Position numbers and translations under genes: made by a program
Shown: piece after piece, positions 6,306-39,672 of the stretch
How the letters are laid out: every line of letters starts with the position of its first letter
Numbering within the stretch: position 1 is the stretch's first letter
Assembly: GCA_964430885.1 (NCBI GenBank)
Contig: CAYSHM010000004.1
Coordinates: 23,770-87,769 of the forward strand
DNA length: 64,000 nt
Direction: 5' to 3'
From: an uncultured archaeon
GTDB taxonomy: Archaea > Thermoplasmatota > Penumbrarchaeia > JASLWR01
Notes under the pieces: generated by a model
The model's database searches: none
What the model was told of the DNA's origin: nothing
What the model saw: only the letters and a program-made list of their open reading frames with translations

Positions 6306-9300
6306 TTATTCCAAAACCCATTCTTCATACTTGCTCCAATCCTCCTCCTCGATATCATCAGCTCCTTCGTCCGATAGATCTGAATCCCAAATATCGACAT
6401 CATCCCAGCTCTCCTCATTTCTGTTTTCATCTTTCCTGTCACTTTCAACACTGAAGAACGGGACATCATCGCTCTCATTTACTTCCTCCGCCTCTTCATC
6501 TCTTTCAAGATCCTTATCTTTCTTTTTTCTCTTTCCGGCGGCACCCTTTTTCCTACTCGATCCTTTCTTGGATCCTGCAGTTTTCTCAGCCTTCCCACTT
6601 CTATCTTTCTTGGGGGTTTTCGATTTATAGTTATCCGCCTTCTTCTTCTCCCCGTCTGCCTCATCTTCCTTCCTTCTTTTTCTGGCAACCAATAAAGCTA
6701 CAACAATAATAAAGATGATAAGTGCCAGACCCAGAGCTAGCCACAGGGTATTACTGCCTTTCATGTTCAATTGAGGTAAGATCCCATCTTCGCTTCCACC
6801 TTTATTTTTGTCATCATCACCTCCAGTTCCGTTTGGATTACCGGGCCCTTCACCATTTCCGTCGTCATCGTTATCATCGTCGCCAATGACCTTCGGCAGT
6901 ATATTAACCATGATGGTGGTGGAGTTCCACCCGCCGAATAAGTCTGTAACATTCAGGGTCAGGCTGTGTTGTCCAACGGTCAGATTGAGAAGTATGTTCG
7001 TATCGCTTTCAATATATTCCCTGTCAACGTACCAGTTGAAGCTTAAAATGTCGCCGTGGATTAGGTCTGGATCGTCACCCTTCCCTGCAGCAGTGAATGG
7101 AGTGCCTTCGGTGTGTTCGGTCTTAGCTACTATCTCCACATCATGCGGGATATCGTTGGTATTGTTCACCTTTATAATAAAATATACCCAGTCCTTTCCG
7201 CCTTTTCCGTCCTCTAATGTGACATTTACGGTCCAGTTGCCTACATGGTAGTTGTTCGGCGTCCCGCTTAAAAGTCCAGTATCCCTGTCGAATTTGAGGA
7301 AGGGAGCATTGGTATAGCAGGTCCAGACCAAGGTATCATTTACTGGATCGACGTCAAAACCTTTGAAAACTGCATTGTAGAGTTCTTCCTCCTGACAAAA
7401 TGTATCCGGAACCGTCTCGATAACAGGATCGTCGTTCTCATTCATCACCTCAAGGCTGAAGTTCTGCCAATCGGTTCCGTTGTTTCCATCGTTTACAGTG
7501 ATGTTCACCCACCATATTCCCACATCTTTGTTCTCGGGCGAGCAAGTGAGGTTTCCAGTGGTAGCATTCATTTCAATGAACTCAGCCTTGGTGTGCAGTT
7601 TCCATGTCAGAGTATCGTTGGTTGGGTCCATGTCTTCAGCTTCATAGACGTGATAGAAATCCAGATCCTCCCGCAGTATATACGGCACATATTCAATGAT
7701 TTCCGGAGCGTCATTGTCATTCAGGACAATTATCTGTAGATCAAGAAAGTCGGATCCTTGAGAGTTCTCGATGCTTATGTTCACCGTCCAATTCCCGACA
7801 TGCTGGTTTAGAGGTTCGCCGACGAGTGTTCCATTGGTATGGAGGGTGAGGAAAGTAGCATTTGTCTCCATTGCCCATACAACGGGTTCATTCGTGTTCC
7901 TCGCGGACAAGTTGAGCTGATAGTATTCGTCCTCTTCAGCCTCCAGGCCCCCCTCCCTTGCCAGAAGGGGAATGCCCCACGGTCCCACAAGGGGATTGTT
8001 ATCCATGCAGCCGGCACTTCCGCCTATGGCATAGGGCGAGTCGCATATGCCGTTTTGGTCTTCATCAATGATATTATTATCACTCCAGTAGTTCCCGCTG
8101 TCGCCGTTGTCGAATCGATTCCCGTATCCGTCATCTCGTGCTTGTTCGCCAGATCTGGTTTGACTGTTGTTGAGGAAATTATTGTGGACTATCAGATTCC
8201 CTGTTCCGTCTAGGACCTTAAGGCCGCATTTTCTGTTGTTGCGGTATTCGTTATCTGTAAGATAATTATTATTTCCGGAAATGATAGTACCTATTGTGTT
8301 ATTGGAGAATGTTGAATTGGAGATGGAGCAGCCATTGGAATTGTAAAGGACTACTGGCGACCATAATCCCCCTCCAGTAAAATCCGATATGGTGGAATTT
8401 GTGCAGTTTACCAGAACTAACTGTCCATAATCTTCTCTCAGCATGATTTCTGTGTAATTTACAGCGTACTTGAGCTTACCGCCTTGGACCGTATTGGAGG
8501 AATCTATAGTATGAGAATTCCAGTTTTGATCATGTTCTCCATGGATCCTAATCCCGCTTTCAAAGTGGTTGTCGTAAACAGTAGCATCCCTTACTTCGGA
8601 TAACAAAACGGAACCTGCACACTGGCGGATAACGCAGTTCTGCACTCTAACCCCGTCCCCGTAAACAGCGATCCCTGGAGCCCTGTTCACCTTGTTACCT
8701 GTAATGTTGATGCCCGAAATATAACAGTTATCAGCATTGACAATGATTGCAGGCATTTCATTTTTGAAGGTGGTCAATATGGTTGGGTCGTTGTGTACAG
8801 CAGTTAGAATTACGCTTTTATTGAGGTAGATTGTCTCAGTGTAGTTTCCAGGGGATAGAAAGACAGTTCCGCCTTTCTTGACCCTGTGAACAGCTCTGGC
8901 AGGATCAGCAAAGCTTGTCCATCCGAAACCCGGGGTGTCGGTACCATAATCGTCATCCACATACACCATATCAGGTTCAAAAAGTATCAGGGACGGGTCT
9001 CCCAGTATGACCATTCCGTAATACCAGCTGATATCGTTATATCCGCCAGGATCATCGGAATAAGGATACTGGACCTCGAACCATTCCCTAAGTGCCTCGC
9101 CGAATGAATTGCCTCTTCCTAGCGAATCATAGAACCATGAAAAACCAAGCATTGATCCCGTTTTTGTGCTCCCCAAAGATATTAGGGAATCGGTCCCGGT
9201 ATTCATTACATAGGCATGACCCAGACAGTTATTGCTGGTGAATCTTGCCCCAGAACAGCAGAATAGGTTATAGAATAGCGCTTCAGGAGGAGCTGCCCGA

Positions 9301-10331
9301 AGGTTATTGCTGTTGGTGTTTCCGCCGGTATGGAAGTAATGAGTAGTTGCTCCTGAATGGCAGGATAGCTGAATGAACTCATAGGAAGCATTGGGAACCC
9401 GGTTGGACATATAATCGTTCTTATTAACTGGATTGTCGGTATCACTCCACCACATGGCATCGTAATCGTCGTAAGCGTTACCTATACCGTGCCTGAAATC
9501 ATTTCCTCCCGCCCAGTCGTGATCAGTGTAGGTGAGCCCGTACCTGGTCCTGTTCATCTGTCCTGTCCAGTACCTGTGGACCTTCCCGAAGTAGCTCTTG
9601 AGAACCTCGATCTCTACCCCTGGCACTCTCGAAGCGTCGATTCGGCCGGTGAATATTTCCGGTGCAGTATCGCCCACCCCGTCAGTGTGCGACTCGTACT
9701 TGTTATCGCTATTTGCATCTGTCCAGTTCCCGTCCATGTCCATGTAGTATAGGTCGCATGGGAAAGAGGACGGGTTTCCGTCGAAATCGTTCACATGATA
9801 GAACCAGGGAACGGGAAGATCGCCTACAAGTACAGCTCCGACAACGTGATAATTTGGGTCGTTATAATAGCTTAGTATAGTGTTCTTAATATCTACGTGG
9901 TTTCCTCCGGAGACCGTAAGCTTGACAGGAGTATAGCCGGCATTCTGAAGATCGGCAATATAGGTATCCAGCTCAGAGGTCAGGAGGACTCCCAGAGACT
10001 GCTGAACGAAAACCAGCATGGTTGAGGGATGAAATTCCGGATCTCTGGACCTGGTCAATTCCGGATCCGGTGAGATATGGAAGGGGAGGTTAGGTCTGAT
10101 TGATATATAGTCCTCATATGTATCCACTGGACCTATGGTTCTCATGCTCTGGTTAAGAAGAAGTGAATATTGATCAGAATCCACGGCCCAAGAAGGTCTA
10201 TTGCTGATATCAGAATTATTTCCTTTGTCATCATACTTTATGCTGAAATAGGCCGAAGCCGAGGTGGAAGTAAGAATTATAATTAGAATAGCTAAGCATA
10301 TAAGCGGTATGGATGAGCCACTCTTTGCCAT
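6306..10331 (-). CDS. Giant surface protein: signal peptide, C25/gingipain-like (clan CD) domain, right-handed beta-helix, 4 cadherin-like domains, PKD, TM, 125-aa charged cytoplasmic tail
   Basis: Signal peptide ICLAILIIILTSTSASA. VLVGDLPVPWFY, FPCDLYYMDMDGNW, LSCHSGATTH and LFCCSGARF resemble the peptidase C25 His/Cys dyad region. PbH1-like repeats follow (GINITGN, GIAVYGDGVRVQNCVIRQC, TVYDNHFES). Cadherin linker motifs are present: LNDNDAPEI, MNENDDPVI, NNTNDIPHD. A PKD-like segment reads HGDILSFNWYVD...LTLNVTDLFGG. The TM helix is LWLALGLALIIFIIVVALLVA, followed by a Lys-rich then acidic tail. Confidence 0.8.
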   Translation of the reverse strand: MAKSGSSIPLICLAILIIILTSTSASAYFSIKYDDKGNNSDISNRPSWAVDSDQYSLLLNQSMRTIGPVDTYEDYISIRPNLPFHISPDPELTRSRDPEFHPSTMLVFVQQSLGVLLTSELDTYIADLQNAGYTPVKLTVSGGNHVDIKNTILSYYNDPNYHVVGAVLVGDLPVPWFYHVNDFDGNPSSFPCDLYYMDMDGNWTDANSDNKYESHTDGVGDTAPEIFTGRIDASRVPGVEIEVLKSYFGKVHRYWTGQMNRTRYGLTYTDHDWAGGNDFRHGIGNAYDDYDAMWWSDTDNPVNKNDYMSNRVPNASYEFIQLSCHSGATTHYFHTGGNTNSNNLRAAPPEALFYNLFCCSGARFTSNNCLGHAYVMNTGTDSLISLGSTKTGSMLGFSWFYDSLGRGNSFGEALREWFEVQYPYSDDPGGYNDISWYYGMVILGDPSLILFEPDMVYVDDDYGTDTPGFGWTSFADPARAVHRVKKGGTVFLSPGNYTETIYLNKSVILTAVHNDPTILTTFKNEMPAIIVNADNCYISGINITGNKVNRAPGIAVYGDGVRVQNCVIRQCAGSVLLSEVRDATVYDNHFESGIRIHGEHDQNWNSHTIDSSNTVQGGKLKYAVNYTEIMLREDYGQLVLVNCTNSTISDFTGGGLWSPVVLYNSNGCSISNSTFSNNTIGTIISGNNNYLTDNEYRNNRKCGLKVLDGTGNLIVHNNFLNNSQTRSGEQARDDGYGNRFDNGDSGNYWSDNNIIDEDQNGICDSPYAIGGSAGCMDNNPLVGPWGIPLLAREGGLEAEEDEYYQLNLSARNTNEPVVWAMETNATFLTLHTNGTLVGEPLNQHVGNWTVNISIENSQGSDFLDLQIIVLNDNDAPEIIEYVPYILREDLDFYHVYEAEDMDPTNDTLTWKLHTKAEFIEMNATTGNLTCSPENKDVGIWWVNITVNDGNNGTDWQNFSLEVMNENDDPVIETVPDTFCQEEELYNAVFKGFDVDPVNDTLVWTCYTNAPFLKFDRDTGLLSGTPNNYHVGNWTVNVTLEDGKGGKDWVYFIIKVNNTNDIPHDVEIVAKTEHTEGTPFTAAGKGDDPDLIHGDILSFNWYVDREYIESDTNILLNLTVGQHSLTLNVTDLFGGWNSTTIMVNILPKVIGDDDNDDDGNGEGPGNPNGTGGDDDKNKGGSEDGILPQLNMKGSNTLWLALGLALIIFIIVVALLVARKRRKEDEADGEKKKADNYKSKTPKKDRSGKAEKTAGSKKGSSRKKGAAGKRKKKDKDLERDEEAEEVNESDDVPFFSVESDRKDENRNEESWDDVDIWDSDLSDEGADDIEEEDWSKYEEWVLE

Positions 10332-22107: not shown

Positions 22108-25100
22108 TCAATCCATGTATCTCTCCCAATCTATTTCGATCTCGTTGGAAGGCAGTTCGTCCTCCCATGGTTCCTGCTCTCCCATGGCGTTCCTTCTTTT
22201 TGTGTAAAGCGCAATAACGACGACTATGGCCAGAACTACAGCTAATATTATTATTATCAGTATGGCGAATCCAGAACCGCTAGTGGTCGGAGTTCCAGTG
22301 TCGCTGTGCTGCTCTGCCATTGGAGCGAAGATGGTGAAATGGGTGACATTGGCATAGATAACATTGTTCTCAGTATCGATCCAGGTTTCCTCAGCCACCT
22401 GCCATCCGTTGCTGTTCTCGTCCCAGTAGTACACCTTGAGACTATCTTCGCTGATCCCATAAGGCAGATCATCCTCTGAATAATCGATCATCATCCAGTA
22501 CCAATTTATCTGCCCAGTTATATCTGCCTGATATGTGTCCCCAATAAGATATTTATCTGTCGGCAGATCATCCTGTGCCTTCTGAGGCAAACCTGTGAGG
22601 TCCTTTAGCTTCCAGGATACTGTCCCCTCACCGAAGAACTTGGCCTTGACCAGTCTTCTACCCAGTTCATCAAGGAAATCCACCTCCTTTACTGAATCAA
22701 GTGTCAGCGGGATCTCGGCTCTTTTGTCATATCCTGCAGTGAATCTGATGCGACCATCCACAATCTCAGGGATAATTATTTGACCGCCTAGAGGTATGAA
22801 CATGTTATTGGAGGCCGAAAAGCTGCTGCCGTGTTCAATCTTGTAGGCCGCAGGATAAATAAAGCCACCCTCCATCAATAGAGCATTGAACTCGCCTTCA
22901 TGTTCTGAATCCAGGGTGAACCAGTTAGGTCTCTTTTCCAACCTTTTTGTATCAAGGATGTAGTAATGCACAGGGACCTTTAAAGGATCATTGGAGGTAT
23001 CATTCTTCCAGATAAAGGCATGTGAGTCCCAGCGGAATTTTCCAATGTCCTGCCAGTTATCCTTGAAATATAGTCCATTATCCCCTGCTTCGCCCTTTTT
23101 CTCAATAAGACCCCAATAATCGATGTCCAGAAATATCTCAAGTTCCCTGAGTTTTTCCATAATTTGCTCGAACAGGGTTTCATTTATGCCGGAAATGTCC
23201 GCATTCTTTACGGCCCAGTAAATTATATAATAAAGATCTTCTTCCGAAAGGGTTTTGTTCTCATATCCTTTGATCAAAGCTGCCAAAAACAGGGCCAAGT
23301 CTGCATGGGCCAGGTCCTGTTTTGATATCAGATTAGATAAGATGATTTTGGCTATGATGTCACGGCCGATATGGTCTTTCTCTCTCAATGCCATAAGTAA
23401 TCTGATGAGTTCATAACCCTCTATGGATCCATGTTCATACAGCCATTTAACTATGCCAGTCAGGTTTTCCTCTTCGAATATTCCGTTTTCTCCCAGCATT
23501 TCTATGATGTGGGCAGTATCATCGATGGTGATGACCGATGAATCCAGGCACATTCCCAGAAGCTCACCCAGGTGGGTTCTGTTGATCTCCTCACTGAGCA
23601 AACTTACCAACAGCAGTTCCGTGAACTCATCCAGGTCGAGTTCACCAGTGTAGTAGGCCTGACCTATGATCCATTTCACATCTTCCAATGTCAATTCGTT
23701 TTCCTTGAATGCCATGAACAGGATCCATCTGACATCATCCAAAGTCAATTCCCCTTCCTCATAAGCATTGATCAGTATCCATTTCAAAATTGGTTTTGTC
23801 AAGAGCTCTTCATTGTAAGCGTGGATAATTATCCATTTCATATCCTTTCGGGTCAATTTTCCTTCATTGTAGGCATGAACGATAAGCCATTTCACATCCT
23901 CTTTTGTAAGTTCTCCCTCATCATAAGCCTTGAAGATGATCCATTTCACATCCTCTCTTGTCAATTCCCCCTCCCCATAGGCATGGAAGATAAGCCATCT
24001 CAGATCGCTTCTTTCCAGTTCATCCTCGGAATACATCATAACAGCCAGATACCAAAGGTCATCCCTTGTAAGCTCTCCTACCTTGTATGCGTGGAAAATG
24101 AGCCATCTCAGATCATCCCTTGTGAGATTTCCCTCCTCATATGAGGAGTGAAGCAGCCATTTCAGCTCATCTCTTGTCAGCATTCCATCATCATATAGAA
24201 GCACCAGCAGTTTTTTTACATGGGTCCTGTTCAGACCATTTTCCTTGTAGAGCATTACTATGATCCATTTCAGTTCGTGCTTGCTGAAATCACCGCTGGC
24301 ATGAATATCCTTTATTATTCTCCGGATATCCTCGTGGGTGAGTTCCCCATTTCTGTAGAATAGCGATAACAGCGTTTTGAGTTCTTCGAGTTCAATGTTG
24401 CCATCCATATAGGCTTTGGATATGGCCCTTTTAAGATGGGTGATGTTGATAAGACCGTCATCAAAGGCCCTTTTCAGAAGAATGTGAATATTTTCCAGTT
24501 CAAATACATCTTCCATCTGAGCCCTGAAAAGGATGACTGTGAGATCGTCAATGGATATCTTTCCCTGATGCATGGCCCTGAAAAGGATATCATGTATGTC
24601 GTTGATGGATAGGTCGCTCTTATGGTAGGAGAGAACAAAGAAATCATAGAGTTCGTCAGTGGAGATCACTTCGTTCAAGAATGCATCCATGATCAGATCC
24701 CGCATCTCTGAAAAAGTGATGAATCCCTCGTCATAACCCCCTATGACCAGCCACGCATAGGTCCCGACTTCATCATCGATTGTGTGGTTGTAATGACCAA
24801 GGAATGCAACTGACAGCTCAAGTAGGTCCTGGTAACTTATTTCTCCTCTATTATAGGATTGGAAAAGGGCTAGCCTGATTTCATTCTCCTCGTCCTCATG
24901 ATTTTTAAAAGCATTCATAATATTATCTATTACATTCCCCATCTCCGTGTTGTCATTCTCAAGTATGCTCATATTGTTCTGGGCTGAATCGTAGACCGGG
25001 GGCTCGTTTGTTGTATCGTTGGAGTGCTGATCGTTCGCTACATTCTCATTCTGCAGTTCTCCAAGAAGCTCATCGGTGCCGTTCTCGTCAATCTTTTCAG

Positions 25101-28068
25101 ATAGGAAAGCCATTTGAAGTAGGCTGCCTATATCTGCATTGCTGAGATCACTGCTGCCGTGAAGATGAACAAGAGTGCCGTTGATGTCTGTAAGGGAGAA
25201 CCCGATCCTTTTGTGAAGGTCAAACAGCATTATGCGTAGATCGTCCAGGTCCATAAATGCATTATCGTCAGTATTAAGGCCAGCTTCGTTGCTCACCTTT
25301 GTTTCAGAATACAATCCGGCTATCACCAAGGCCATTCTATTATAACTCAAATGCTGATCTAGATGTACAAATATATCAGTTATATCCCGTCTTGTCAATC
25401 TATTCTCACTGAATGCTATGGTGAACAGCTGAACAAGCATTTCTTCATCCAGATAACTCTCGTTTATTCCGTGGGAAATGAATCTGATCCACGCCTCCAA
25501 TTTCACACCGTCAATGTGGTAAGTATCTATTAGATGGTGGAGCAAAATTTCAGGTTCGAGTTCGTGAATTTCCTTAGTCCAGAATACCAGGCCGATCCAT
25601 GTTCCCTCATCTATTACGCCTTTCTCGTAAACAGCCTGAAGAAAACTAAGCCAAACCTGGTGCTCCATTATATCATCAAAATATAAATATTGAATAATTT
25701 CTTTTATCATATCCGAATCCAGATGGCCGTCCCTCTTGGCATGAGATAATATCTGAGCAATATCATCGAGTTGGATGTATCCATGGAGGTAACCGATATG
25801 CAGAAGTTCGGTCCATCTCTCCCATCCAAGCAGTTTCTGGTCGTAGACCATTTTCAATAGTTCCAGGTACTCATCACGGCCTATTTTCTCCTCGGAATGC
25901 ATATCGAACAGTACCAAAAGCAGATCATGCTCGCTTATCATCTCAAGATCCAGAAGGGATTCCAGTATGTATAGGAAATCTCTTTTATCAAGGGCGCCGT
26001 GCTCGTATAGGACCTGCAGAACATCATAGAGCAGATCGAGGTGTACATCGCCGTGTATGAACTTCTCTATAATAATATCAACAATATCGTTCTTCTCGAT
26101 CAGTCCTTCATTGTATCCGTGAAGTACCAGGTCGGCCCAATTCTCAGTTGTTATTACTTCTTTATCATGTATGAGGGTATAGATGTCCTTCCAGTAAAGG
26201 TTTTTATCATGGTAGGAAAGTTTTTTCAGATAGGTCAATAGCTCTTCACAATCCAAATAACCTTCTGCGTGGGCCCATAGGAATATCTCCACAAGTTCTT
26301 CGGAAAGAATGATATCGTAACCATTCTCAATGTATCTGTGCATCAGTTCCATTAGCTCGTACGCGTCCAGATCCAACTCCTTTTCTACCTTTATCAATAT
26401 CCATATTATATCATGAGCATCAATGATGCCATATCCATCTGCTTTGATCAGTATTAGCACCATATCGCTTTTGGTTATTATTCCCCTGTTATGGAGCACT
26501 ATCAGCGTTTCCTTGATATGTTCCAGGGATAAACCCCTGTCCCTGAAGGCCTCGACCAGTGCAAGTATGTATTCGTCTATGGCCCCTTCACCCTTCTGTA
26601 GTTCGTTGATAGCTTCATCAAATTCAATTTCTTCATGAGAGTATATAACAGCCGATCCTGCTTCATCTTCCCCTTCTCGCCCGTCCAATTCTTTCTCCAT
26701 TGCATATTCATCAAGATAATTAGCATCCCCGTCTCCTTCTATGCTCTCAAGCACCTCCTCCTTCAGCCAGGCAGGAACATAGGGTGATATGTGATTTCCC
26801 AGTAGTGTAAAACTTTTCATAAAAAGAGATGTATCCTTGAATCCCTCACTATTTGAGGCTGTTTCCTCATTAACTGGTTCCACATCCCAACCTATAATGC
26901 TCTTGCTGTAGCTGAACCTCAATTCTATCAATACTCCTGTGCCGCCGTTTTCATAGCCCATTTTACTGCTGAATCCATCATCGGATACCTCGAAGTCATA
27001 TGATGGGACCCTGTCAAGTGGAACTTCCTTTATAACAAGCTCCATTTCAAAATCAAGCTGGAAGGAGTCGAGGACCTCCTCTGGTTGGTTGTATTCCTCT
27101 CGCGTCTTATCCTCCACAGCTCCTGGTGAAGCAGCATATTCATTTTCACCGTTGCCTGTTCCATTATCTTCATAGGTCTTGTATCCAATATTTTCTCTTG
27201 TAAGAGTGAATCCCCATACTTTCTTTTCGTGATCGCTATTCTTATCAATTGTCTTGGATAGGGTCCATGCCCCTTCCAGGTTGACACTTCTCAGCAGCTC
27301 GTGCATCTCACTTTCCTCACTACTGGGATATTCGTCCCCTTCCCTTGTCCTGGGACTTTCCGTTCCATCACTTTCCTCATAGGACCAGGTATCGTCATCC
27401 TCAAACTCATCGGGGTCAATATCATCATGCACAGGTTCGTAGTAATCCTCTTTGAACTCGTAGATGCTGTCGAGTCTCTGGGAGAAAATTGTCTGGACAG
27501 GTATTCCGACCCCTTCTTCATCCAAATAATCATCTGACCCCTCGATATCAGCCACTCCCGCATATCTGGTGTACATTGATACCAGGGTTATGGCGTTGGG
27601 GTTTTCCTCCGTGCCGTAGATGACTGCAAAGAAGGTATCCTTGTCCATATTGATACCTACATAGTTGCCGCCTCCCAGATAATCAGTGCGACCAGTATCC
27701 AGTATTATATCGGCAATATCCGGAAGTTCGGGAGATTTAATAATTCCTTCATTATTTGAATTGTCATCCTTTTCATCCTGGCTCGAATCTTCCTTTTTGT
27801 TACTTGCACCTTCGTCACCGCCGCCTTTCTCATCATTTTTGTTACTGGGTTCCACTTCATTGTCCGGTTTTTCCTCTCCTTCGGAATATTCCTCGTTTGC
27901 ACCTCCATGCTCACTGCCGGACGAATCGACTCCTCCGGCACTGCTGTTACCATCCTCCTCTATCATCAATGCCAGTACATTGCTTCCTATTCCAGCGGTA
28001 AGGAGCATCAACATCCCCAAAACGCAGATAATCCCTCTTAATTTGTCAGTTTTCATAAATATCACCAT
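22108..28068 (-). CDS. Giant (1986 aa) single-pass membrane protein dominated by an 18-residue helical tandem repeat; family unknown
   Basis: Long uninterrupted ORF. N-terminal signal/TM GIICVLGMLMLLTAGIGS, an acidic low-complexity region, two repeat blocks, a beta-rich C-terminal domain (VYYWDENSNGWQV...ANVTHFTIFAP), the TM helix FAILIIIILAVVLAIVVVIALY, and a 32-aa acidic tail. Confidence 0.8.
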   Translation of the reverse strand: MVIFMKTDKLRGIICVLGMLMLLTAGIGSNVLALMIEEDGNSSAGGVDSSGSEHGGANEEYSEGEEKPDNEVEPSNKNDEKGGGDEGASNKKEDSSQDEKDDNSNNEGIIKSPELPDIADIILDTGRTDYLGGGNYVGINMDKDTFFAVIYGTEENPNAITLVSMYTRYAGVADIEGSDDYLDEEGVGIPVQTIFSQRLDSIYEFKEDYYEPVHDDIDPDEFEDDDTWSYEESDGTESPRTREGDEYPSSEESEMHELLRSVNLEGAWTLSKTIDKNSDHEKKVWGFTLTRENIGYKTYEDNGTGNGENEYAASPGAVEDKTREEYNQPEEVLDSFQLDFEMELVIKEVPLDRVPSYDFEVSDDGFSSKMGYENGGTGVLIELRFSYSKSIIGWDVEPVNEETASNSEGFKDTSLFMKSFTLLGNHISPYVPAWLKEEVLESIEGDGDANYLDEYAMEKELDGREGEDEAGSAVIYSHEEIEFDEAINELQKGEGAIDEYILALVEAFRDRGLSLEHIKETLIVLHNRGIITKSDMVLILIKADGYGIIDAHDIIWILIKVEKELDLDAYELMELMHRYIENGYDIILSEELVEIFLWAHAEGYLDCEELLTYLKKLSYHDKNLYWKDIYTLIHDKEVITTENWADLVLHGYNEGLIEKNDIVDIIIEKFIHGDVHLDLLYDVLQVLYEHGALDKRDFLYILESLLDLEMISEHDLLLVLFDMHSEEKIGRDEYLELLKMVYDQKLLGWERWTELLHIGYLHGYIQLDDIAQILSHAKRDGHLDSDMIKEIIQYLYFDDIMEHQVWLSFLQAVYEKGVIDEGTWIGLVFWTKEIHELEPEILLHHLIDTYHIDGVKLEAWIRFISHGINESYLDEEMLVQLFTIAFSENRLTRRDITDIFVHLDQHLSYNRMALVIAGLYSETKVSNEAGLNTDDNAFMDLDDLRIMLFDLHKRIGFSLTDINGTLVHLHGSSDLSNADIGSLLQMAFLSEKIDENGTDELLGELQNENVANDQHSNDTTNEPPVYDSAQNNMSILENDNTEMGNVIDNIMNAFKNHEDEENEIRLALFQSYNRGEISYQDLLELSVAFLGHYNHTIDDEVGTYAWLVIGGYDEGFITFSEMRDLIMDAFLNEVISTDELYDFFVLSYHKSDLSINDIHDILFRAMHQGKISIDDLTVILFRAQMEDVFELENIHILLKRAFDDGLINITHLKRAISKAYMDGNIELEELKTLLSLFYRNGELTHEDIRRIIKDIHASGDFSKHELKWIIVMLYKENGLNRTHVKKLLVLLYDDGMLTRDELKWLLHSSYEEGNLTRDDLRWLIFHAYKVGELTRDDLWYLAVMMYSEDELERSDLRWLIFHAYGEGELTREDVKWIIFKAYDEGELTKEDVKWLIVHAYNEGKLTRKDMKWIIIHAYNEELLTKPILKWILINAYEEGELTLDDVRWILFMAFKENELTLEDVKWIIGQAYYTGELDLDEFTELLLVSLLSEEINRTHLGELLGMCLDSSVITIDDTAHIIEMLGENGIFEEENLTGIVKWLYEHGSIEGYELIRLLMALREKDHIGRDIIAKIILSNLISKQDLAHADLALFLAALIKGYENKTLSEEDLYYIIYWAVKNADISGINETLFEQIMEKLRELEIFLDIDYWGLIEKKGEAGDNGLYFKDNWQDIGKFRWDSHAFIWKNDTSNDPLKVPVHYYILDTKRLEKRPNWFTLDSEHEGEFNALLMEGGFIYPAAYKIEHGSSFSASNNMFIPLGGQIIIPEIVDGRIRFTAGYDKRAEIPLTLDSVKEVDFLDELGRRLVKAKFFGEGTVSWKLKDLTGLPQKAQDDLPTDKYLIGDTYQADITGQINWYWMMIDYSEDDLPYGISEDSLKVYYWDENSNGWQVAEETWIDTENNVIYANVTHFTIFAPMAEQHSDTGTPTTSGSGFAILIIIILAVVLAIVVVIALYTKRRNAMGEQEPWEDELPSNEIEIDWERYMD
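23150..26520 (-). repeat. In-frame 54-nt (18-codon) tandem repeat array, roughly 50-60 units in two blocks; best conserved at 23640-24290
   Basis: Protein units stay in phase, for example DLSINDIHDILFRAMHQG, ELTHEDIRRIIKDIHASG, NLTRDDLRWLIFHAYKVG, ELTREDVKWIIFKAYDEG, ELTKEDVKWLIVHAYNEG, ELTLEDVKWIIGQAYYTG. On the + strand, CCATTTCACATC-like words recur at 23671, 23725, 23779, 23833, 23887, 23941, 23995, 24103 and 24157 (spacing 54 nt). Block boundaries are approximate. Confidence 0.75.
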
Positions 28069-28230
28069 CCGTTTTCAAGACGATTATAGAATAAAAAGTT
28101 CATGAGTAGTATATAAACTGTTTTGGTATATATGCGTGAGATATATCATGCTTCTTATAACGTGGGAACAGTTTATAGCTTGTAACTTAAGAGAAAATTC
28201 CACATAACTAAAGGAAAGAATGCACGAATT

Positions 28231-31050
28231 CTAAAGTAGTTCAATAGTTCTTTGGATTGCTTTAAGTGCTCCTTTTGATAACAGGGGATTTTCATCCTGG
28301 AATGCGACCAATTTTTCTTTAGCTTCTTTCCCTTTGTCCATAAGTTTGAGCAGTCTGGCTTGAATAATGTGCCCTTCAGATAGAATATCCATATTATCTG
28401 CGGAATTTCCCAATTCGATTAACTCATAGGTACAACCCAAGGACTCTTGAATGTCATTTTTAAACCAATTCATACCGCATTTTAAAAGGAGAAGTTCCCG
28501 TTTCAGATTGATCATCCGAGGATCAAGTATGTCCTTACCCACGAATTTGGACAGTCTCCCTGCCTTATTTTCCTGCTTCTTGATAATTGCCAATCCACTG
28601 TCTATCTTTATTATGAGCTTGTCCAAAGGTATCTCGTTCAAATCCACTGGATCCGATTGTTTAAGGAAGGATGTCCTGAAAACCCTGTTCAGTATTCCAA
28701 GATGGGCGAGTTCGCATTTCACCTCATTATAGATGATATCTGATATAACATGAGGCATTTGATAGGTTTCCAGGAGTCCTCTTGCTTTGGCAAATAATTT
28801 TTTAGCCTTTAGGTATTCGCCTTTGGAATATAGACTCTCAGCAATCAATCTATTGAAGAGGGCTGTGAGATGGTCGTCCCTTCTTCCAGACTGGTTAAGT
28901 GCCTTTTTAGCCAGTTTTTCAGCTTTTTCCGGCAGGCCACAATCAATATAGGTTTTGATAAGGCCCAAATAGATCCTCCCTGCTCTGGCAAATCCGCCGT
29001 CTTCATTTGATGATATGCATTTTTCGATCTCATTTTCAGCCTTTTTGAACCATTTGGACGCTTCATTATGATCCTGAAGAGATACCTGTTTGGCTATCTC
29101 CGTACAAACCCTAGCTTTTTCGAAGCTGTCATTTGATGTGTACAGGCCTTTTTCAAGTTCTATGACCTTGGCATTCATGATATCGTGTTGGCGGACCTTC
29201 CGCTGCATCTCTTTTAGGGCTTGATATACTGATTTTTTGGATATACTTCCCAATTTTCCTTTTCCCCAATAGTCCCATTTATTTTCCTTCAATAATCTTT
29301 CAGCCCTTTTCAGATGCTTTTTTGATCTTCTAATGTCCTTTTCCTGGTATGATATTTCAGACATGTAGACCTCAATGGAAGGGTGGGATTCCCCGATTTT
29401 TTTTCTGATCCTTGATAAGAACTCCTTGAGGACCTGTGAATGAGGTCCGCGGGTAAGCCATAGGTCCGTCTCGGAAAGAGCTATAAGGGCCTTTTCAGCC
29501 GATCCAAGACTGATAAGATGATGCATATATTCCAGAAAATATATGTCCAGATCCTCAATAATTGATTTTGGGAGGTAATCGCCCTCCTTTTCCCGCTGAA
29601 ATATCTCCTGAAGGTATTCCCCAAGGTAGTTGAGAAGTTCTTTCCGCTCCCTGTAGCCGATTTCCTTGGTAATGATCTCAGCTATATGATCATGTACTAT
29701 ATACAGTCCGCCTTCAGTACGGTCAACCAGAAGGATCGAGTTCAATTTCTCCATTAATTCAGTACCATTTGGTATAATATCTTCTTCCACAGGGACCGTG
29801 CACAGAGAAAGAGTTTTCAATAATTTGGTTGTGTCTTTTTCCAATCCGGCAAGAACCTCTCTTCCTAGTGAACCTTCCTTTCTTGCGGCGATATTTCCTG
29901 TCAGCACCTCTTCTTTCCTCAATAATTCCACCTGCAACGGTATCCCACCAGTGGCTTTAAGGATCATATTACCCATCTTTTCATCCAATTTATCAGCCCT
30001 GCCAAAGATCCTGAGGGAAGCAAGCTGACAGCATTCAATTTGGGTCAATGGATTAAGCACTATCTTATTCACCCTTTCACCAAGCTTCAATGTGGAATAA
30101 TCCATTTTTTTTGTTTTTCCCCTTGAAAGAAGCAAAAAAACTATGTGGCCGCAGCTGCTTGAGACAGTAAGGATCTCTTTTAGCATTTCCTCTAGGCCAT
30201 CTGGTGCATTGTGCAGGTCGTCAAGGACAATCAATATTTTTTTCAGCGATTCGCTGCGCCTGAGCGTTTCGGATAGTTTATCAGATTCAGACCTGTCGAG
30301 GAATTCAATCAATTCTTTTCTTAAGGACTCCAATCCATACCATTTTCTGAACCTTGCATAGAATATATTGTGGCTGGATTTCATTGATCTTATGATTTCA
30401 CTGGCTAAGGCACTCTTGCCCATTCCGGCCATGCCGTACACCCTAAAGCATCGGAAGCCTCCTTTAATCAAGAAGCTAATAATTTTCTTTATTGCGCTCT
30501 TTCTTCCAATGAATTCCCCTGTATTAACCAGATCCGATAAATGGTGTTTTTTTCTAGATTCCTCCGAACTGCAAGTGGCCCCCCTATCATCCAAAAGATC
30601 TGGCAGTTGAGTAAGGTCAATAGTACTGTTTTTATTAGTCAATATATCAATAAGATGGAAATAAGATACATTTGGATTTATCTTCCTAGCCTCCCTGAAA
30701 ACATTTAGTATTTTCATTCTTTTCTGTGCATCGGCTATGATTACAAGGACGGATTCCCTTTCAATAAAATCAATTATCTTTTTCCCCTGTTCACATCCTG
30801 AAGATGACAGTCGATATGCTTTCATCTTTCTTTTCTGCCCTTTGAAATGGCTGTTCTTAGTCTCCAAAACACCATTTTTTTCCAATTCCTTAAGAGCTCG
30901 GGAAACATTGGACTGGGCCATGTTCAGGGCTTGGGATATCCCCTTCTGGGACACCTGGAGCGGCTGGACGAATTCTTCTCTAAGAGATCGGTATCTCATC
31001 AGCCAAAGAATAATTTTTTCTATGATGGATAGATTGATATTCAAGTTCAA
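28231..31050 (-). CDS. wHTH + STAND (NB-ARC/archaeal-ATPase-like) NTPase + TPR-like helical repeat protein, probable signal-sensing transcription regulator
   Basis: The N-terminal VSQKGISQALNMAQSNVSRALKELEKNGVLE reads as a MarR/TrmB-like winged helix. Walker A is GMAGMGKSALA and Walker B is KILIVLDDLH. ATGGIPLQV is a GxP/GLPL-like motif. About 450 C-terminal residues are amphipathic helical pairs. TTG start 31050 overlaps the upstream stop (TTGA); the first ATG is 17 codons in. Confidence 0.75.
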   Translation of the reverse strand: MNLNINLSIIEKIILWLMRYRSLREEFVQPLQVSQKGISQALNMAQSNVSRALKELEKNGVLETKNSHFKGQKRKMKAYRLSSSGCEQGKKIIDFIERESVLVIIADAQKRMKILNVFREARKINPNVSYFHLIDILTNKNSTIDLTQLPDLLDDRGATCSSEESRKKHHLSDLVNTGEFIGRKSAIKKIISFLIKGGFRCFRVYGMAGMGKSALASEIIRSMKSSHNIFYARFRKWYGLESLRKELIEFLDRSESDKLSETLRRSESLKKILIVLDDLHNAPDGLEEMLKEILTVSSSCGHIVFLLLSRGKTKKMDYSTLKLGERVNKIVLNPLTQIECCQLASLRIFGRADKLDEKMGNMILKATGGIPLQVELLRKEEVLTGNIAARKEGSLGREVLAGLEKDTTKLLKTLSLCTVPVEEDIIPNGTELMEKLNSILLVDRTEGGLYIVHDHIAEIITKEIGYRERKELLNYLGEYLQEIFQREKEGDYLPKSIIEDLDIYFLEYMHHLISLGSAEKALIALSETDLWLTRGPHSQVLKEFLSRIRKKIGESHPSIEVYMSEISYQEKDIRRSKKHLKRAERLLKENKWDYWGKGKLGSISKKSVYQALKEMQRKVRQHDIMNAKVIELEKGLYTSNDSFEKARVCTEIAKQVSLQDHNEASKWFKKAENEIEKCISSNEDGGFARAGRIYLGLIKTYIDCGLPEKAEKLAKKALNQSGRRDDHLTALFNRLIAESLYSKGEYLKAKKLFAKARGLLETYQMPHVISDIIYNEVKCELAHLGILNRVFRTSFLKQSDPVDLNEIPLDKLIIKIDSGLAIIKKQENKAGRLSKFVGKDILDPRMINLKRELLLLKCGMNWFKNDIQESLGCTYELIELGNSADNMDILSEGHIIQARLLKLMDKGKEAKEKLVAFQDENPLLSKGALKAIQRTIELL

Positions 31051-31799
31051 ACCTCAATTCCGCATTTCCTGCACTTGCTGGATAGCATGACATTAACCTT
31101 GGATTTGCATCTTAGGCATAGGTATTCTGCTCGGCAAGATATACACTTGGTAGCCATCAATGGCATGGGTTGGCTGCATTCAATACATCTGTACTTTTTA
31201 CCGCAGAACCTGCAGTTCAATGAAAAACCTGAAATGAACTTGCTGCATTGGGGACATTGAACCTTGAAATTTCCTTTACATGTCCTGCATCGCCCGCTTC
31301 CCCTGCAAATTTTGCACGGTCTTCTAAGCAAACCTCTTTTCCCTTTACCGGAACATTTTCTGCATTTAAGGGTATTCTTGCAGTCCGGGCAGAAAATTCC
31401 ATATTCCTTTCTATTCCTCTTAACCTCTTTAAGCTGTTTTCCGGCCATTCTTTCCAGCTCTTCCTTTGATACCTCCTCAACATTCTCTTTTTCCTTATCG
31501 TAATATTTGTGTCCGTCATGATCTATCTCATGGATCCCATCCACTCCAACCACCTTGACATTGTCCATTGTTATAACCTTTTCGTCTCTGCTCCAATCAT
31601 ATTCCTTGCTCACGCTGGACATGTCCCATTCCTTCACCTCTTCCTTCTGGTAGGCCACGAGGTCTACATCTTTGTAGTCTTTTACCTCATTCTTAGCTTC
31701 GTGATCTACGATTAGATGTGTTCCATCCATCCAGCCTTTTTCCTTTCCATCGTCTTTTTCATCCTTTCTCTTATTGTCTTTTTCCGACATACTGAACAA
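31047..31799 (-). CDS. Multi-zinc-ribbon protein (10 CxxC pairs, two DnaJ-type CxxCxGxG) with acidic/Lys-rich N-terminal half
   Basis: The C-terminal 120 aa contain CPDC, CRKCSGKG, CKICRGSG, CRTC, CPQC, CRFC, CIEC, CISC, CLRC and CRKC. The stop overlaps the start of the STAND gene. Confidence 0.65.
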   Translation of the reverse strand: MFSMSEKDNKRKDEKDDGKEKGWMDGTHLIVDHEAKNEVKDYKDVDLVAYQKEEVKEWDMSSVSKEYDWSRDEKVITMDNVKVVGVDGIHEIDHDGHKYYDKEKENVEEVSKEELERMAGKQLKEVKRNRKEYGIFCPDCKNTLKCRKCSGKGKRGLLRRPCKICRGSGRCRTCKGNFKVQCPQCSKFISGFSLNCRFCGKKYRCIECSQPMPLMATKCISCRAEYLCLRCKSKVNVMLSSKCRKCGIEV

Positions 31800-36498: not shown

Positions 36499-39400
36499 TT
36501 ACATCCAATCCTCATCTTCCTCCAGGAAAAGTTCATCGTCTGATTCATCATCACCTTCTCTTCCTTGAGGCAAAGCAAGTGTATTATCATCTTTTGGTCC
36601 CCCAGTATGAAGGCTGAGGGGTTTTTCATCTTCCTCATCACCGGATAATATCGGTCCGCCGGAAGTGAAGGAAACCGCATTCTCTTCCTCTTCAACCTCA
36701 CCCTGAAATACAATAGTGTCTTCTTCAGGTTCTTCATTCTCATCCTCCCATTCATCCGGCGCAAATATGTCATCATGATAATCTTCTTCTTCCTCTTTAT
36801 TGTGTTTTCTCTGTCTTAGGGCCAAGAATACCAGTATTATTATTATTAATGCAATTATTAGAAGCCCCACAATAAGTAAACTGTCCCTTCCTTCGGAGGA
36901 TTGTCTTACAAAATCAGAATATGTGTCGAGGTTGTCTTTAATCCAAGAAAATGGTTTTTCCTTTGAGTCATCATTATAATCCAAAGTGATCATGGTATCA
37001 TCGGCCAGTTCTGAACCGAAGTCTATTTCGAATGTGACGCTTCCCGAGTCGTCTGTGGTCCCTGAATATTTCCTCCCATCCAATTCAAAGGAAATACTGA
37101 TGCCGGGAATGTTGTTTCCGTTGGAATCTCTGAAAGGTCCAATTGTAACTTCTTCGGTAATTCCTAATAATACAATCAAGTATCCTCTGATATCTTTGGA
37201 AATGTTCATTGTCGTAGTAAAATCCTTGTATCCTTCCTTTTTGCCAAGTATTTCATAGGTTCCAGTAATCAGTCTCATAGTGAAATTTCCATTGAATGTT
37301 TCGATGAGAGTTCCATCAATAAAAATGTCTGCATCAACAGGAACTATCGAGCCTGAAAATGTGTGGTTGTAATCCAATATGTCCTCAATATTTTCTTCTA
37401 AAGTGATTAAAGCCGTACTAGTGAACTCCTTTTTAAAAAATACGCTGGTAGCCGCTGGATCATAAATTGTCCGATTGATTACCGTATCGTGACTGCCTTT
37501 CCTAGAGAATGTTCCATAACCATATTCATATTCCTCCAATTCGGCATGAATCTTCCAGTAACCTGTTGTTGCGGATTGAGGGAGATCCTCCCTGTCCTCC
37601 CGGTAGGTTTTTAGTCCGGTCTGGGGATATGCCTCTATCTCGGTATTTGATAAGGGAATGTCCAGGAAGTAGAACTTTCCCTCATCATCGGTAACGGCAG
37701 TTAAGTTATACCAAGTCCTGTTGGTAACGTTTATCAAGGATTTTTTGACGACCCCGGCAATAGTAATATCCACCATCATTGAGTCCTTTTCATCAACAAA
37801 TACGATTAATTCAATTGAAACGCCTTCCAAATAATTGCCAACAGTGTCATTTACCGACCCATTCAGTTGTGCGGGGGAGGGAATGGTCTTCTTTATGATG
37901 ATAAAGTTCTGGGTAATCGGGAATGTGTCCAAATTTAATTCCAATTTGATCATGCGCTGGGATGGATAACCTTGTGGATATCCGTCTTCATATCCGTTTT
38001 CAACTATCCAGTCCCAATCCAATTTGGCAATATAATCTTTCATTGGAAGGTTTATGGAATAAAAACCGGACGAATCTGATGTAATGTTGTAATAATTCCC
38101 CCCGTCGTAAATGACAATAGTGGCACCTTCAACAGGCATACCTTCCTGATCTATCACCTTCCCGCTGATAGAGCCGTCATCTGGTGGAAGTACCAACAAA
38201 GAATAATTAAGTCCGTTATTGGTATAATTTCTCCCATTACCCTGATCATCTTCGGTATAGAAGCTGTAATAATGTTCCTGACCTATATGATAAGGATCGG
38301 ATTCCTCATCCCATGTTGCAATCCATTGAAACTGGAAATTCACGATATCGTTCCACTGATTGCCCTGGGGTTCCATTTGATGCTGAACGCCGTCAATAAT
38401 AATATTCACAATTCCCTGGTCATTGTCTATATCACTATAGTTCAAATTAAAGGTTACGGTGTCCCCGGCAGTGATGGAATCGTATGGCATATGCGTTATA
38501 TTGTTCAGAGCTGGAGGTTGGTTGGGGAATGAATCCACATATATCGTGGATGTATTGACCGTTCCAGTAGTTGTTTCTTCCATTTCAATAACATATTCTC
38601 CTTCTTCTTCGATCACGATCCCCTTGTAAGATAGTTCTATGGGATGTCCAGACATGCTTATTGGCGGAATGTTCCTATCGGTGGTATTGATATGTGTAGA
38701 GTCACCGGGATTGTTCGAGGGATAATATGAGAGTACCAATTCTGCCTGAAGCAGACTGTTGCCAGTATTTTCCACAAATACTGATAGCGCAAATTCATAG
38801 CCAGCAAAGACATTTGGAGGTTCGGTTTCTGAAATGTTGAGTTCCACAGCACTGATATTTTGAATGATTATCTGAAAAGTGGTGGAATTGGTTGTGGCAT
38901 TCGGTCTCGTCAAGAAATCATTGGATATGGTAAAGGTGACTTGAAATGTATCTTCGTGGGTAGGCGTCCATCGGAAGTTATTTAATATTGGCTGATCAAC
39001 AGTATCCAGATAGTCAATATCTACAGTGTCACCATCTATGGTTTGATCATTTTGATTGCTGTCTTCTATTTCAAGTTTCAGCTGATAATTACTTGCCGGA
39101 ATGTTGCCAGTATTATTGATAATGCAATTAAGGCTAGTTGTACTTTTGGAGTAGACTCCATTATCGTCACCAATACCGTAAATCTCATAGTTCAAACTGA
39201 ACTGAACAATGTTTCTGAACTCAATATATCGAATTATTTGATCATTGACCATACTGCCAGCAATAGTAGACCATCCTTCAATAATGACTGTTATCTCATA
39301 CCAGCCCTCCTCCTGAAAATTCAATCCGAGCTGTGAATTATGCCTTCCATTCTGGAGATCCCCGTTTCCAGTATCATTATTATCAGTATAGGTTTGATTG

Positions 39401-39672
39401 GCATTATCTATAGCGACAGATGTGTTGACGTTAAGAATATTTTCAGCAAGAGTAAAAGATATTCCTAAAACATGAGGTGTGTTCGAAAATACACCATTCA
39501 CATTCGGATCACCCTTTATTTCCAATGAATTGATTGTTATTTCACCAGCCCGGCCGGAACGGTTTTCACTTCTTTCATTATATTCTCCAAAAATATTTGG
39601 ACTGAGACTGTTTATTAATATCACAACTAGGGCAAAATATAGGTATTTCAATAACGATTTTTTGTTTTTCAT
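36499..39672 (-). CDS. Large surface protein: signal peptide, CARDB-like and CarboxypepD_reg/PEGA-like beta-sandwich domains, TM, 105-aa acidic cytoplasmic tail
   Basis: Signal peptide LYFALVVILINSLSPNIFG. CARDB-like NNTGNIPASNYQLKLEI and ENTGNSLLQAELVLSYY. Regulatory-domain-like ISGKVIDQEGMPVEGATIVIYDG...SDSSGFYSINLP. The TM helix is LLIVGLLIIALIIIILVFLAL, and the tail ends EEDEDWM. Confidence 0.75.
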   Translation of the reverse strand: MKNKKSLLKYLYFALVVILINSLSPNIFGEYNERSENRSGRAGEITINSLEIKGDPNVNGVFSNTPHVLGISFTLAENILNVNTSVAIDNANQTYTDNNDTGNGDLQNGRHNSQLGLNFQEEGWYEITVIIEGWSTIAGSMVNDQIIRYIEFRNIVQFSLNYEIYGIGDDNGVYSKSTTSLNCIINNTGNIPASNYQLKLEIEDSNQNDQTIDGDTVDIDYLDTVDQPILNNFRWTPTHEDTFQVTFTISNDFLTRPNATTNSTTFQIIIQNISAVELNISETEPPNVFAGYEFALSVFVENTGNSLLQAELVLSYYPSNNPGDSTHINTTDRNIPPISMSGHPIELSYKGIVIEEEGEYVIEMEETTTGTVNTSTIYVDSFPNQPPALNNITHMPYDSITAGDTVTFNLNYSDIDNDQGIVNIIIDGVQHQMEPQGNQWNDIVNFQFQWIATWDEESDPYHIGQEHYYSFYTEDDQGNGRNYTNNGLNYSLLVLPPDDGSISGKVIDQEGMPVEGATIVIYDGGNYYNITSDSSGFYSINLPMKDYIAKLDWDWIVENGYEDGYPQGYPSQRMIKLELNLDTFPITQNFIIIKKTIPSPAQLNGSVNDTVGNYLEGVSIELIVFVDEKDSMMVDITIAGVVKKSLINVTNRTWYNLTAVTDDEGKFYFLDIPLSNTEIEAYPQTGLKTYREDREDLPQSATTGYWKIHAELEEYEYGYGTFSRKGSHDTVINRTIYDPAATSVFFKKEFTSTALITLEENIEDILDYNHTFSGSIVPVDADIFIDGTLIETFNGNFTMRLITGTYEILGKKEGYKDFTTTMNISKDIRGYLIVLLGITEEVTIGPFRDSNGNNIPGISISFELDGRKYSGTTDDSGSVTFEIDFGSELADDTMITLDYNDDSKEKPFSWIKDNLDTYSDFVRQSSEGRDSLLIVGLLIIALIIIILVFLALRQRKHNKEEEEDYHDDIFAPDEWEDENEEPEEDTIVFQGEVEEEENAVSFTSGGPILSGDEEDEKPLSLHTGGPKDDNTLALPQGREGDDESDDELFLEEDEDWM

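Follow-up and report, generated by a model that had tools for sequence, protein, structure and literature searches.

The window analyzed here is a 64,000-nucleotide stretch of DNA from an uncultured archaeon (Thermoplasmatota; Penumbrarchaeia; JASLWR01), taken from positions 23,770 to 87,769 of contig CAYSHM010000004.1 in assembly GCA_964430885.1. It contains a real open reading frame (ORF) on the minus strand (22108..28068, stop codon included) that encodes a giant protein of 1,986 amino acids. Two blocks of this protein, residues 494 to 1000 and 1062 to 1620, hold ∼58 in-phase units of an 18-residue repeat. An earlier description of the locus (the sequence-only reading) had reported the ORF and its giant product, both of which are borne out, but left unstated the strand, which is minus. 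All coordinates given below for parts of this protein are on that strand.

The giant gene and its 18-residue repeat

The likely true start of the gene is a second ATG at 28056 (MKTDKL...), which would give a product of 1,982 amino acids. This start is favored by a Shine-Dalgarno-like site, GGTGAT, at 28066 to 28061 (just within the longer ORF and 5′ of this ATG), by a public gene call of 1,982 amino acids (P0001), and by the N terminus of the ortholog described below. We take GGTGAT to be complementary to the 3′ end of the archaeal 16S rRNA. A TATA-like sequence, TTTATATA, can be read at about 28117 to 28110 within the 162-bp intergenic region upstream (28069..28230, minus strand), and the giant gene probably has its own promoter. 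Scans for σ70 promoters and terminators use bacterial models and were uninformative for an archaeal host. Databases annotate the giant protein and every one of its relatives as hypothetical. An identical protein and gene was present on several independent public contigs and neighboring units were only 73 to 76% identical in DNA; the array is therefore neither a recent duplication nor an assembly artifact. A 190-amino-acid ORF on the plus strand (23572 to 24144) lies opposite the consensus-like core of the repeats, in antisense orientation; it most likely reflects the repeating pattern of codons there and is no gene.

Self-correlation of the protein using BLOSUM62 gave peaks at offsets of 18, 36, 54, and 72 in residues 515 to 1010 and 1090 to 1640, and nowhere else in the protein. 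Measured against the maximum over offsets 5 to 59 in each of 1,000 shuffles, the autocorrelation reached z = 14.5 for block 1 (residues 494 to 1000; 25069..26589) and z = 38 for block 2 (residues 1062 to 1620; 23209..24885), and no 18-residue signal was obtained from the N- and C-terminal domains. When the sequence was printed 18 residues per line, block 2 kept one phase from residue 1062 to about 1600 (30 units), and block 1 kept a single phase from 494 to about 1000, except for a local +2/−2 slip at 584 to 637. Autocorrelation and in-register printing together assign ∼28 degenerate helix-turn units to block 1 and about 30 to 31 units to block 2. Between the blocks lies an N/D/E-rich linker or hinge (residues 1001 to 1061; 24886..25068), delimited by composition and by alignment with the ortholog.

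The unit consensus has L/I at position 2, T/S/D/E at position 3, D/E at positions 5 and 6, L/I/V at positions 7, 10, and 11, A/L at position 14, Y/F at position 15, and G at position 18, with Trp at position 9 in block 2. A near-consensus core (ELTRDDLRWLIFHAYxEG) extends over residues 1296 to 1475, and each turn of the protein carries up to five acidic residues (positions 16, 17, 1, 5, and 6). The sequence-only reading had proposed an in-phase 18-residue helical repeat in two blocks, and this was recovered by autocorrelation, in-register printing, and structure prediction; its motif, G-x-[LI]-[TS]-x-x-[DE]..., essentially matches the position-specific consensus, and its estimate of 50 to 60 copies agrees with the ∼58 units counted.

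AlphaFold2 (AF2) modeling of residues 1062 to 1660 from single sequence predicted 33 helices, each about 13 residues long, with turns of 5 residues between them. The mean predicted local distance difference test score (pLDDT) of the model was 68, with values of 80 to 87 across model residues 100 to 200. Foldseek searches of PDB with this model returned alpha-alpha solenoids only (designed repeat proteins, Ctr9/TPR, HAT, PPR, and Sel1), at E values of 1.7e−6 to 1e−3, probabilities of up to 1.0, and TM-scores of 0.07 to 0.24; the top structural match was to designed helical repeat proteins. As modeled, the array would fit the alpha-alpha solenoid class, with different superhelical parameters. 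The prediction of a regular solenoid and its matches to generic alpha-alpha solenoids are in line with the alpha-solenoid proposed in the sequence-only reading, which had named both programs as a check. Each unit would form a single helix of ∼13 residues plus a 5-residue turn, with positions 7, 10, 11, 14, and 15 making up the inter-helix core. By helix-capping rules, T/S at position 3 and D/E at position 6 would act as an N-capping box, L/I at position 2 as a hydrophobic staple, and G at position 18 as the C-cap. Two consecutive units would make one 36-residue alpha-hairpin, placing the array in the TPR/PPR/Sel1-like fold class with homologous A and B helices.

Relatives of the array and matches to known families

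An exhaustive phmmer search with residues 1062 to 1986 against 1.84 billion representatives identified 639 matches at an E value of ≤1e−3, of which only about eleven matched the array. Among these was a full-length ortholog of 2,004 amino acids, MDP6156191.1 (P0151), from the marine Thermoplasmatota metagenome-assembled genome (MAG) GCA_030740765.1, isolate ETNP2_MAG_1, which comes from a marine oxygen-deficient zone. The two proteins are collinear end to end with 31% identity. Across more than 1,000 array residues, global alignment gave 24 to 33% identity with gaps of 1 to 2%, and this scarcity of gaps in both arrays shows that unit number and phase are conserved. Identity within the array was 0.38 to 0.45 at positions 2, 7, 10, 11, 14, 15, and 18 and 0.11 to 0.28 at the predicted surface positions. 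One-to-one orthology of units could not be resolved in the core, where consensus-like units pair with many partners.

The other array relatives are proteins of 600 to 930 amino acids with a signal-like N terminus and 7 to 15 in-phase units of the consensus ELTRDDVKWLIxQAYKxG. Units from short relatives, such as NOZ76257.1 and MBU3966007.1, were 41 to 45% identical to the core of the giant protein. With one genome taken per species, the array was found in 17 GTDB species, all archaeal. Most belong to “Candidatus Methanoperedens” or the Methanoperedenaceae, and the others include one member each of the Aenigmatarchaeota and the Hydrothermarchaeota as well as the Thermoplasmatota MAG. The statement in the sequence-only reading that no arrays like this one were known thus has to be withdrawn, given that the ortholog and the shorter exported proteins carry the same unit. 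Net charge per unit ranges from about −1.6 to −2.2 in the giant protein, through −0.2 to −1.1 in the ortholog, to ∼0 in Methanoperedens.

In the Methanoperedens proteins, Trp-bearing and Trp-less units alternate, and in six Methanoperedens-type relatives the correlation at 36 residues is stronger than that at 18, so that a pair of units acts as a single A/B hairpin. This qualifies the sequence-only view of the repeat as new and shorter than TPR-type units. A single-helix unit of 18 residues stands, but the architecture is not wholly new, the 36-residue hairpin period of these relatives being in the TPR/PPR/Sel1 size range. The Methanoperedens-type proteins (locus L005, 8001 to 10591; locus L006, 5824 to 8009) have an uncharacterized helical C-terminal domain with the conserved sequence ...LYKFAL.P.EKHRIGME..IGYV.... 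Each of these array genes is followed by an ORF of 73 to 85 amino acids with a 4-bp overlap at the stop codon, and a gene for a MarR-type winged helix-turn-helix (wHTH) protein is found immediately upstream of the array gene in L005.

A word-indexed homolog search recovered only the protein itself when the whole sequence was used, two short relatives with the array core, and nothing with the N-terminal domain; this type of search is insensitive for this protein, and it was the exhaustive phmmer search that revealed the family. Using a hidden Markov model of the unit, the repeat was found in no further protein among the 150 top matches, several of which were other giant proteins (up to about 7,000 amino acids) sharing just the C-terminal domain. 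No paralogs of the giant protein were found in the window, and a scan of viral contigs with the array profile identified no relatives. A link to viruses or to the Borgs of Methanoperedens was considered and dropped, as viral relatives were lacking and the remark on solenoids in the Borg paper is unrelated.

Pfam analysis of the whole protein gave a match to DUF7229 (PF23875) at 27.3 bits against a cutoff of 27.0, a summed score to which no individually significant stretch contributed and which covered just the stretch from about position 53 or 59 to position 88 of the 90-position profile. DUF7229 is also listed in the public precomputed annotation of the protein and reached 31.1 bits in the relative P0007; no function has been described for the family, and no paper that mentions it was found. 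The SHOCT-like family DUF1707 (PF08044) scored 17.4 bits against a cutoff of 27.6, and SHOCT itself (PF09851) had no Pfam match in the whole protein. DUF1707 exceeded its cutoff in the relatives P0005 (32.1 bits) and P0009 (28.3 bits), chiefly by the addition of weak repeats. When ten 126-residue array segments from across the family were searched, DUF1707 was matched by seven (E value, ≤0.01; best, 3e−8) and DUF7229 by six, and the segments also matched the unrelated helical families CAMSAP CH, Glycos_trans_3N, EF-hand, and Sigma70_r1_1. Matches to EF-hand_6, EF-hand_7, and EF-hand_8 in the relatives were below the Pfam cutoffs, and no EF-hand model reached its cutoff. The array has just the G-x-L-T-x-x-D half of an EF-hand loop, the end of the helix and the Gly being 2 to 3 residues apart. 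Together, the DUF1707, DUF7229, and other helical-family matches can be read as the summed signal of a generic helix-G-x-L-T-x-x-D/E-helix junction. The resemblance to SHOCT pointed out in the sequence-only reading is the most consistent of the weak signals, with the giant protein itself below the cutoff; it is the best of the weak matches and may reflect distant homology.

No Pfam model for TPR, Sel1, HEAT, ANK, PPR, or LRR matched the giant protein at an E value of ≤1, and none of these families was among the 25 listed of the 33 families matched by the array segments. The NCBIfam search of the protein was empty. Sequence searches of PDB with the protein and with the array profile gave no credible match; a match to BlaI (E value, 0.001) covered scattered helices and was judged spurious. 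Literature searches covering DUF7229, DUF1707, SHOCT-like repeats, and repeats of 18 residues turned up no account of arrays of this kind. Judged by these searches, none of the copies of Pfam, NCBIfam, or PDB used contains a model dedicated to the repeat, and the borderline, summed matches that they yielded agree with the sequence-only proposal that no described repeat family accounts for it.

Flanking domains, predicted topology, and neighboring genes

Kyte-Doolittle hydropathy identified a hydrophobic segment at the N terminus (residues 9 to 37; 27958..28044) that is preceded by K/R and would be either a signal peptide or an uncleaved signal anchor. It leads into an acidic, low-complexity region rich in G/S/E/D/N (residues 36 to 130; 27679..27963; net charge, −21), as judged from composition, and then into a beta-rich head (residues 131 to 475; 26644..27678) with an acidic insert at about residues 208 to 255. 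The head belongs to no known family, with no match in Pfam and no homolog in the word-based search. Downstream of block 2, sequence comparison delimited a beta-rich domain (residues 1656 to 1790; 22699..23103) common to the ortholog only (30% identity) and a membrane-proximal pre-anchor domain (residues 1791 to 1925; 22294..22698) of the form ...YYWDENSNGWQ...NVTHFTIFAPMAE. The pre-anchor domain (52% identity) and the head (37% identity) are the parts most conserved with the ortholog. A single C-terminal transmembrane (TM) helix, identified by hydropathy (residues 1926 to 1959; 22192..22293), is followed by YTKRRN and by a predicted cytoplasmic tail, short and acidic, of 27 residues (residues 1960 to 1986; 22111..22191).

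The pre-anchor domain (...YYWDxxxxxW...NVTHFTIFAPMAE, then TM) was responsible for most of the 639 representative clusters (residues about 1790 to 1960). It is located at the C terminus of hundreds of archaeal surface proteins together with PKD, CARDB, Big_2, and CarboxypepD_reg domains, sometimes in several copies, and has no Pfam or NCBIfam model. A PGF-CTERM/archaeosortase signal was not matched by Pfam or NCBIfam; the C terminus of the giant protein consists of SGSGF, the TM helix, YTKRRN, and a conserved tail of 21 residues. The end of the tail, LPxNE...DW[ED]RY, is kept in the ortholog, with LPSNEIEIDWERYMD in the giant protein and LPINEDDADWDRYQE in the ortholog. Other pre-anchor proteins carry long acidic tails with a repeated [DE]W[DEG][DE], in which Trp stands most often in DWD, DWG, or DWE, at ∼2 times expectation. 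The [DE]W motif of the tail could be a cytoplasmic docking motif.

The best reading of this layout, in which a signal-like segment lies in front and a TM helix behind, is that the array lies outside the cell, as the sequence-only reading had placed it. This orientation draws on the distribution of charge and hydropathy, on the signal-like segment with which every array-family member with a complete N terminus begins, on the domains that accompany the pre-anchor domain, on a motif in the ortholog, and on the isoelectric point (pI). The pI of the giant protein is 4.4, like that of the other surface proteins in the window, where cytoplasmic proteins reach a pI of 9.8. A salt-in halophilic host was rejected as the cause of this acidity, as many proteins in the window have a pI of 8 to 9.8. 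The motif is a weak TSP3-like Ca-binding sequence, DSDGDGFSDGLEKESGTDPYNEAD, in the N-terminal acidic region of the ortholog (P0151; L002/L003, 10001 to 16015; residues about 78 to 105) and does not occur in the giant protein.

The gene upstream of the giant gene (28231 to 31050, minus strand) encodes a 939-amino-acid STAND protein of wHTH-NB-ARC-TPR architecture, and its start overlaps the end of a gene for a 250-amino-acid protein (31047 to 31799, minus strand). The latter is a Cys-rich, multi-zinc-ribbon protein with many CxxC pairs and no family above the Pfam cutoffs. A “STAND regulator pair” had been described here in the sequence-only reading; one STAND protein is present, but the second gene encodes the zinc-ribbon protein. 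At the orthologous locus, synteny is kept for the genes of an aminotransferase, KsgA, UPF0147, a flavoprotein, and a zinc-ribbon protein, followed directly by the giant gene. The zinc-ribbon protein there has 294 amino acids and is 51% identical to that of the window, and its gene is the only conserved non-housekeeping neighbor of the giant gene. The STAND gene, situated in the window between the zinc-ribbon and giant genes, is absent from the syntenic locus, and comparison of the two loci indicates either a gain in one lineage or a loss in the other; the adjacency of the STAND gene is consequently no evidence of a functional link. A reading of these genes as a defense system was also rejected, since PADLOC analysis of the STAND, zinc-ribbon, and giant proteins gave just wHTH-level similarity to Csa3.

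The window is unusually rich in giant acidic surface proteins, among them those encoded at 6306 to 10331, 36499 to 39672, 59385 to 62264, and 62397 to 63878. An ORF of 2,352 amino acids on the plus strand (52282 to 59340) has a transglutaminase core, 10 TSP3 repeats, Ig-like domains, and DUF4129, and another of 951 amino acids on the same strand (47093 to 49948) has no Pfam family.

The stalk model, its alternatives, and known systems

The giant protein, probably a cell-surface protein of a marine Thermoplasmatota archaeon, would be exported by way of the signal-like segment at its N terminus, with the one C-terminal helix anchoring it in the membrane and a short tail left in the cytoplasm. 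Most of the ectodomain would consist of two alpha-helical solenoid rods of ∼28 and ∼30 helices with a polar hinge between them. These rods most likely serve as a stalk or spacer of fixed length that would keep the beta-rich head off the membrane, filling the role that Ig-like domains have elsewhere among the surface proteins of this genome. The concentration of identity at core positions, the variable charge, and the fixed unit count point to a structural element of defined length and not to a sequence-specific or cation-binding surface. On balance, this stalk or spacer model of an exported, C-terminally anchored solenoid protein is probably correct.

Several points weigh against it. The solenoid model was built from a single sequence and is of moderate confidence, such that the array could be a rod or a superhelix, and the Foldseek TM-scores were low (0.24 or lower). 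The AF2 model of the head, made from a two-sequence alignment, had a pLDDT of 43 and was not used, and an adhesive or binding tip role for the head would be pure inference. In addition, the h-region of the N-terminal segment is long (∼23 residues) and could remain in the membrane, and a fixed unit number is also compatible with a defined binding scaffold.

The last point leads to the alternative that survives best, which is improbable but deserves attention: the solenoids could form an extracellular scaffold that binds an extended ligand (a peptide, a polysaccharide, or a surface protein) or captures multivalent cations with its acidic turns, much as Sel1, TPR, and PPR solenoids bind their ligands on the concave face. 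The Foldseek matches of the model belong to solenoid classes that bind ligands (PPR, TPR, and Sel1), the turns of the giant protein are richly acidic, as described above, and G-x-[IL]-[TS]-x-x-[DE] corresponds to the second half of EF-hand loops, to which the relatives have subthreshold matches. However, the predicted surface positions are the least conserved between the orthologs, array charge varies across the family from strongly acidic to neutral or basic, and the Asp-rich first half of the EF-hand loop is absent.

Retention of the N-terminal segment in the membrane as an uncleaved signal anchor would give a different geometry, a giant arch or hairpin in which both ends are in the membrane and two near-equal solenoid arms are joined at the hinge. 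The order of parts is near-symmetric (anchor, beta domain, ∼28 helices, hinge, ∼30 helices, beta domain, anchor), arm lengths are kept in the ortholog, and the long h-region is found there too (∼25 residues). Against this, the ortholog has a plausible signal-peptidase site, VVA|AF, after its h-region, and the signal peptides of the Methanoperedens relatives are short and of the ordinary kind, with no further TM segment in these proteins, which makes an arch rather unlikely.

Bacterial SHOCT-like domains are predicted to act inside the cell as membrane tethers (PMC11237479), and the array could by analogy be composed of cytoplasmic, membrane-associating, SHOCT-like bi-helical modules with the opposite topology. 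DUF1707 was the most frequent Pfam match of the array segments and passed its cutoff in P0005 and P0009, but its score in the giant protein was well short of the cutoff and the matches were summed from weak ones that stood beside unrelated helical families. Moreover, positive residues precede the N-terminal segment and follow the C-terminal TM helix, the relatives have signal-like N termini, and the pre-anchor domain accompanies extracellular domains; a cytoplasmic array is thus very unlikely. Finally, misassembly of repetitive DNA can generate long repeat-bearing ORFs, and the antisense ORF is open inside the repeat region, but the notion that the giant ORF is not a genuine gene is effectively refuted by the collinear ortholog with conserved synteny in a different genome, along with the recurrence of the protein on independent contigs, the limited DNA identity of its repeats, and conservation that tracks the helix-core positions.

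With the stalk model preferred, the array itself is an undescribed alpha-solenoid repeat family within the known class of alpha-hairpin solenoids. A broader proposal can be made only tentatively and at somewhat less than even chances: the ELTRDDVKWLIxxAYKxG unit would define an archaea-restricted, extracellular solenoid family with a single helix-turn as its evolutionary unit, expanded to ∼58 units in two marine Thermoplasmatota lineages, where the constant count would imply a ruler or tether of fixed length. If true, such stalks would be mechanically and architecturally distinct from the Ig-like ones that prevail in the surface proteins of prokaryotes. If confirmed, a very short and very regular helical repeat, unusually one located outside the cell, would join the catalog of alpha-solenoids, and the conserved unit number offers a testable hypothesis of a fixed-length stalk. 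Uncultivated marine Thermoplasmatota and Methanoperedens-type archaea would export helical-repeat proteins, such that their predicted surface is not beta-rich only. A dedicated family model would then be warranted; the scattered borderline matches to DUF7229, DUF1707, EF-hand, and other families could mislead automatic annotation. In the near-idealized core (residues 1296 to 1475), nature offers a counterpart to designed helical repeat proteins that may interest protein engineers; by itself, the array family opens no long-standing question.

Of the systems compared, the short Methanoperedens-type proteins share the same in-phase 18-residue unit and a signal-like N terminus with the giant protein. 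They differ in having 7 to 15 units in near-neutral arrays and a different helical C-terminal domain, and they have neither a TM anchor nor the pre-anchor domain nor the beta head at the N terminus. SHOCT and DUF1707 domains resemble the array, as seen in its consensus and AF2 model, in having two short amphipathic helices with a G-x-[IL]-[TS]-x-x-[DE] turn between them, and DUF1707, the Pfam model matched most consistently, aligns over ∼34 residues (profile positions 7 to 41), equal to two units. SHOCT domains are usually single and terminal, with up to eight copies in one protein reported from Naegleria (PMC3581485), whereas the array comprises ∼58 contiguous in-phase copies that are internal and account for most of an exported protein. 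As a generic helix cap and staple, the shared motif could have arisen by convergence. DUF7229, as a family, does not describe the 18-residue array.

TPR, Sel1, PPR, and HAT repeats, which were among the top Foldseek matches, likewise form stacked antiparallel helices, as predicted for the array; the 36-residue hairpin of two units is within their range of 34 to 36 residues, and the Methanoperedens relatives show an explicit A/B alternation. In contrast to their differentiated two-helix unit, the evolutionary unit of the array is one 18-residue helix-turn, and its consensus is another. The overall plan of the giant protein is that of fibrillar-adhesin-type proteins, further examples of which are encoded in the same window: an export signal, a repeated stalk, and a C-terminal anchor, with the pre-anchor domain and TM helix as in the PKD, CARDB, and Big_2 proteins. 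No adhesive tip domain was identified in the giant protein by Pfam, word search, or AF2. Unlike the Ig-like beta-sandwich repeats of fibrillar adhesins, its stalk is predicted to be alpha-helical, and the number of its units is constant between orthologs and not variable.

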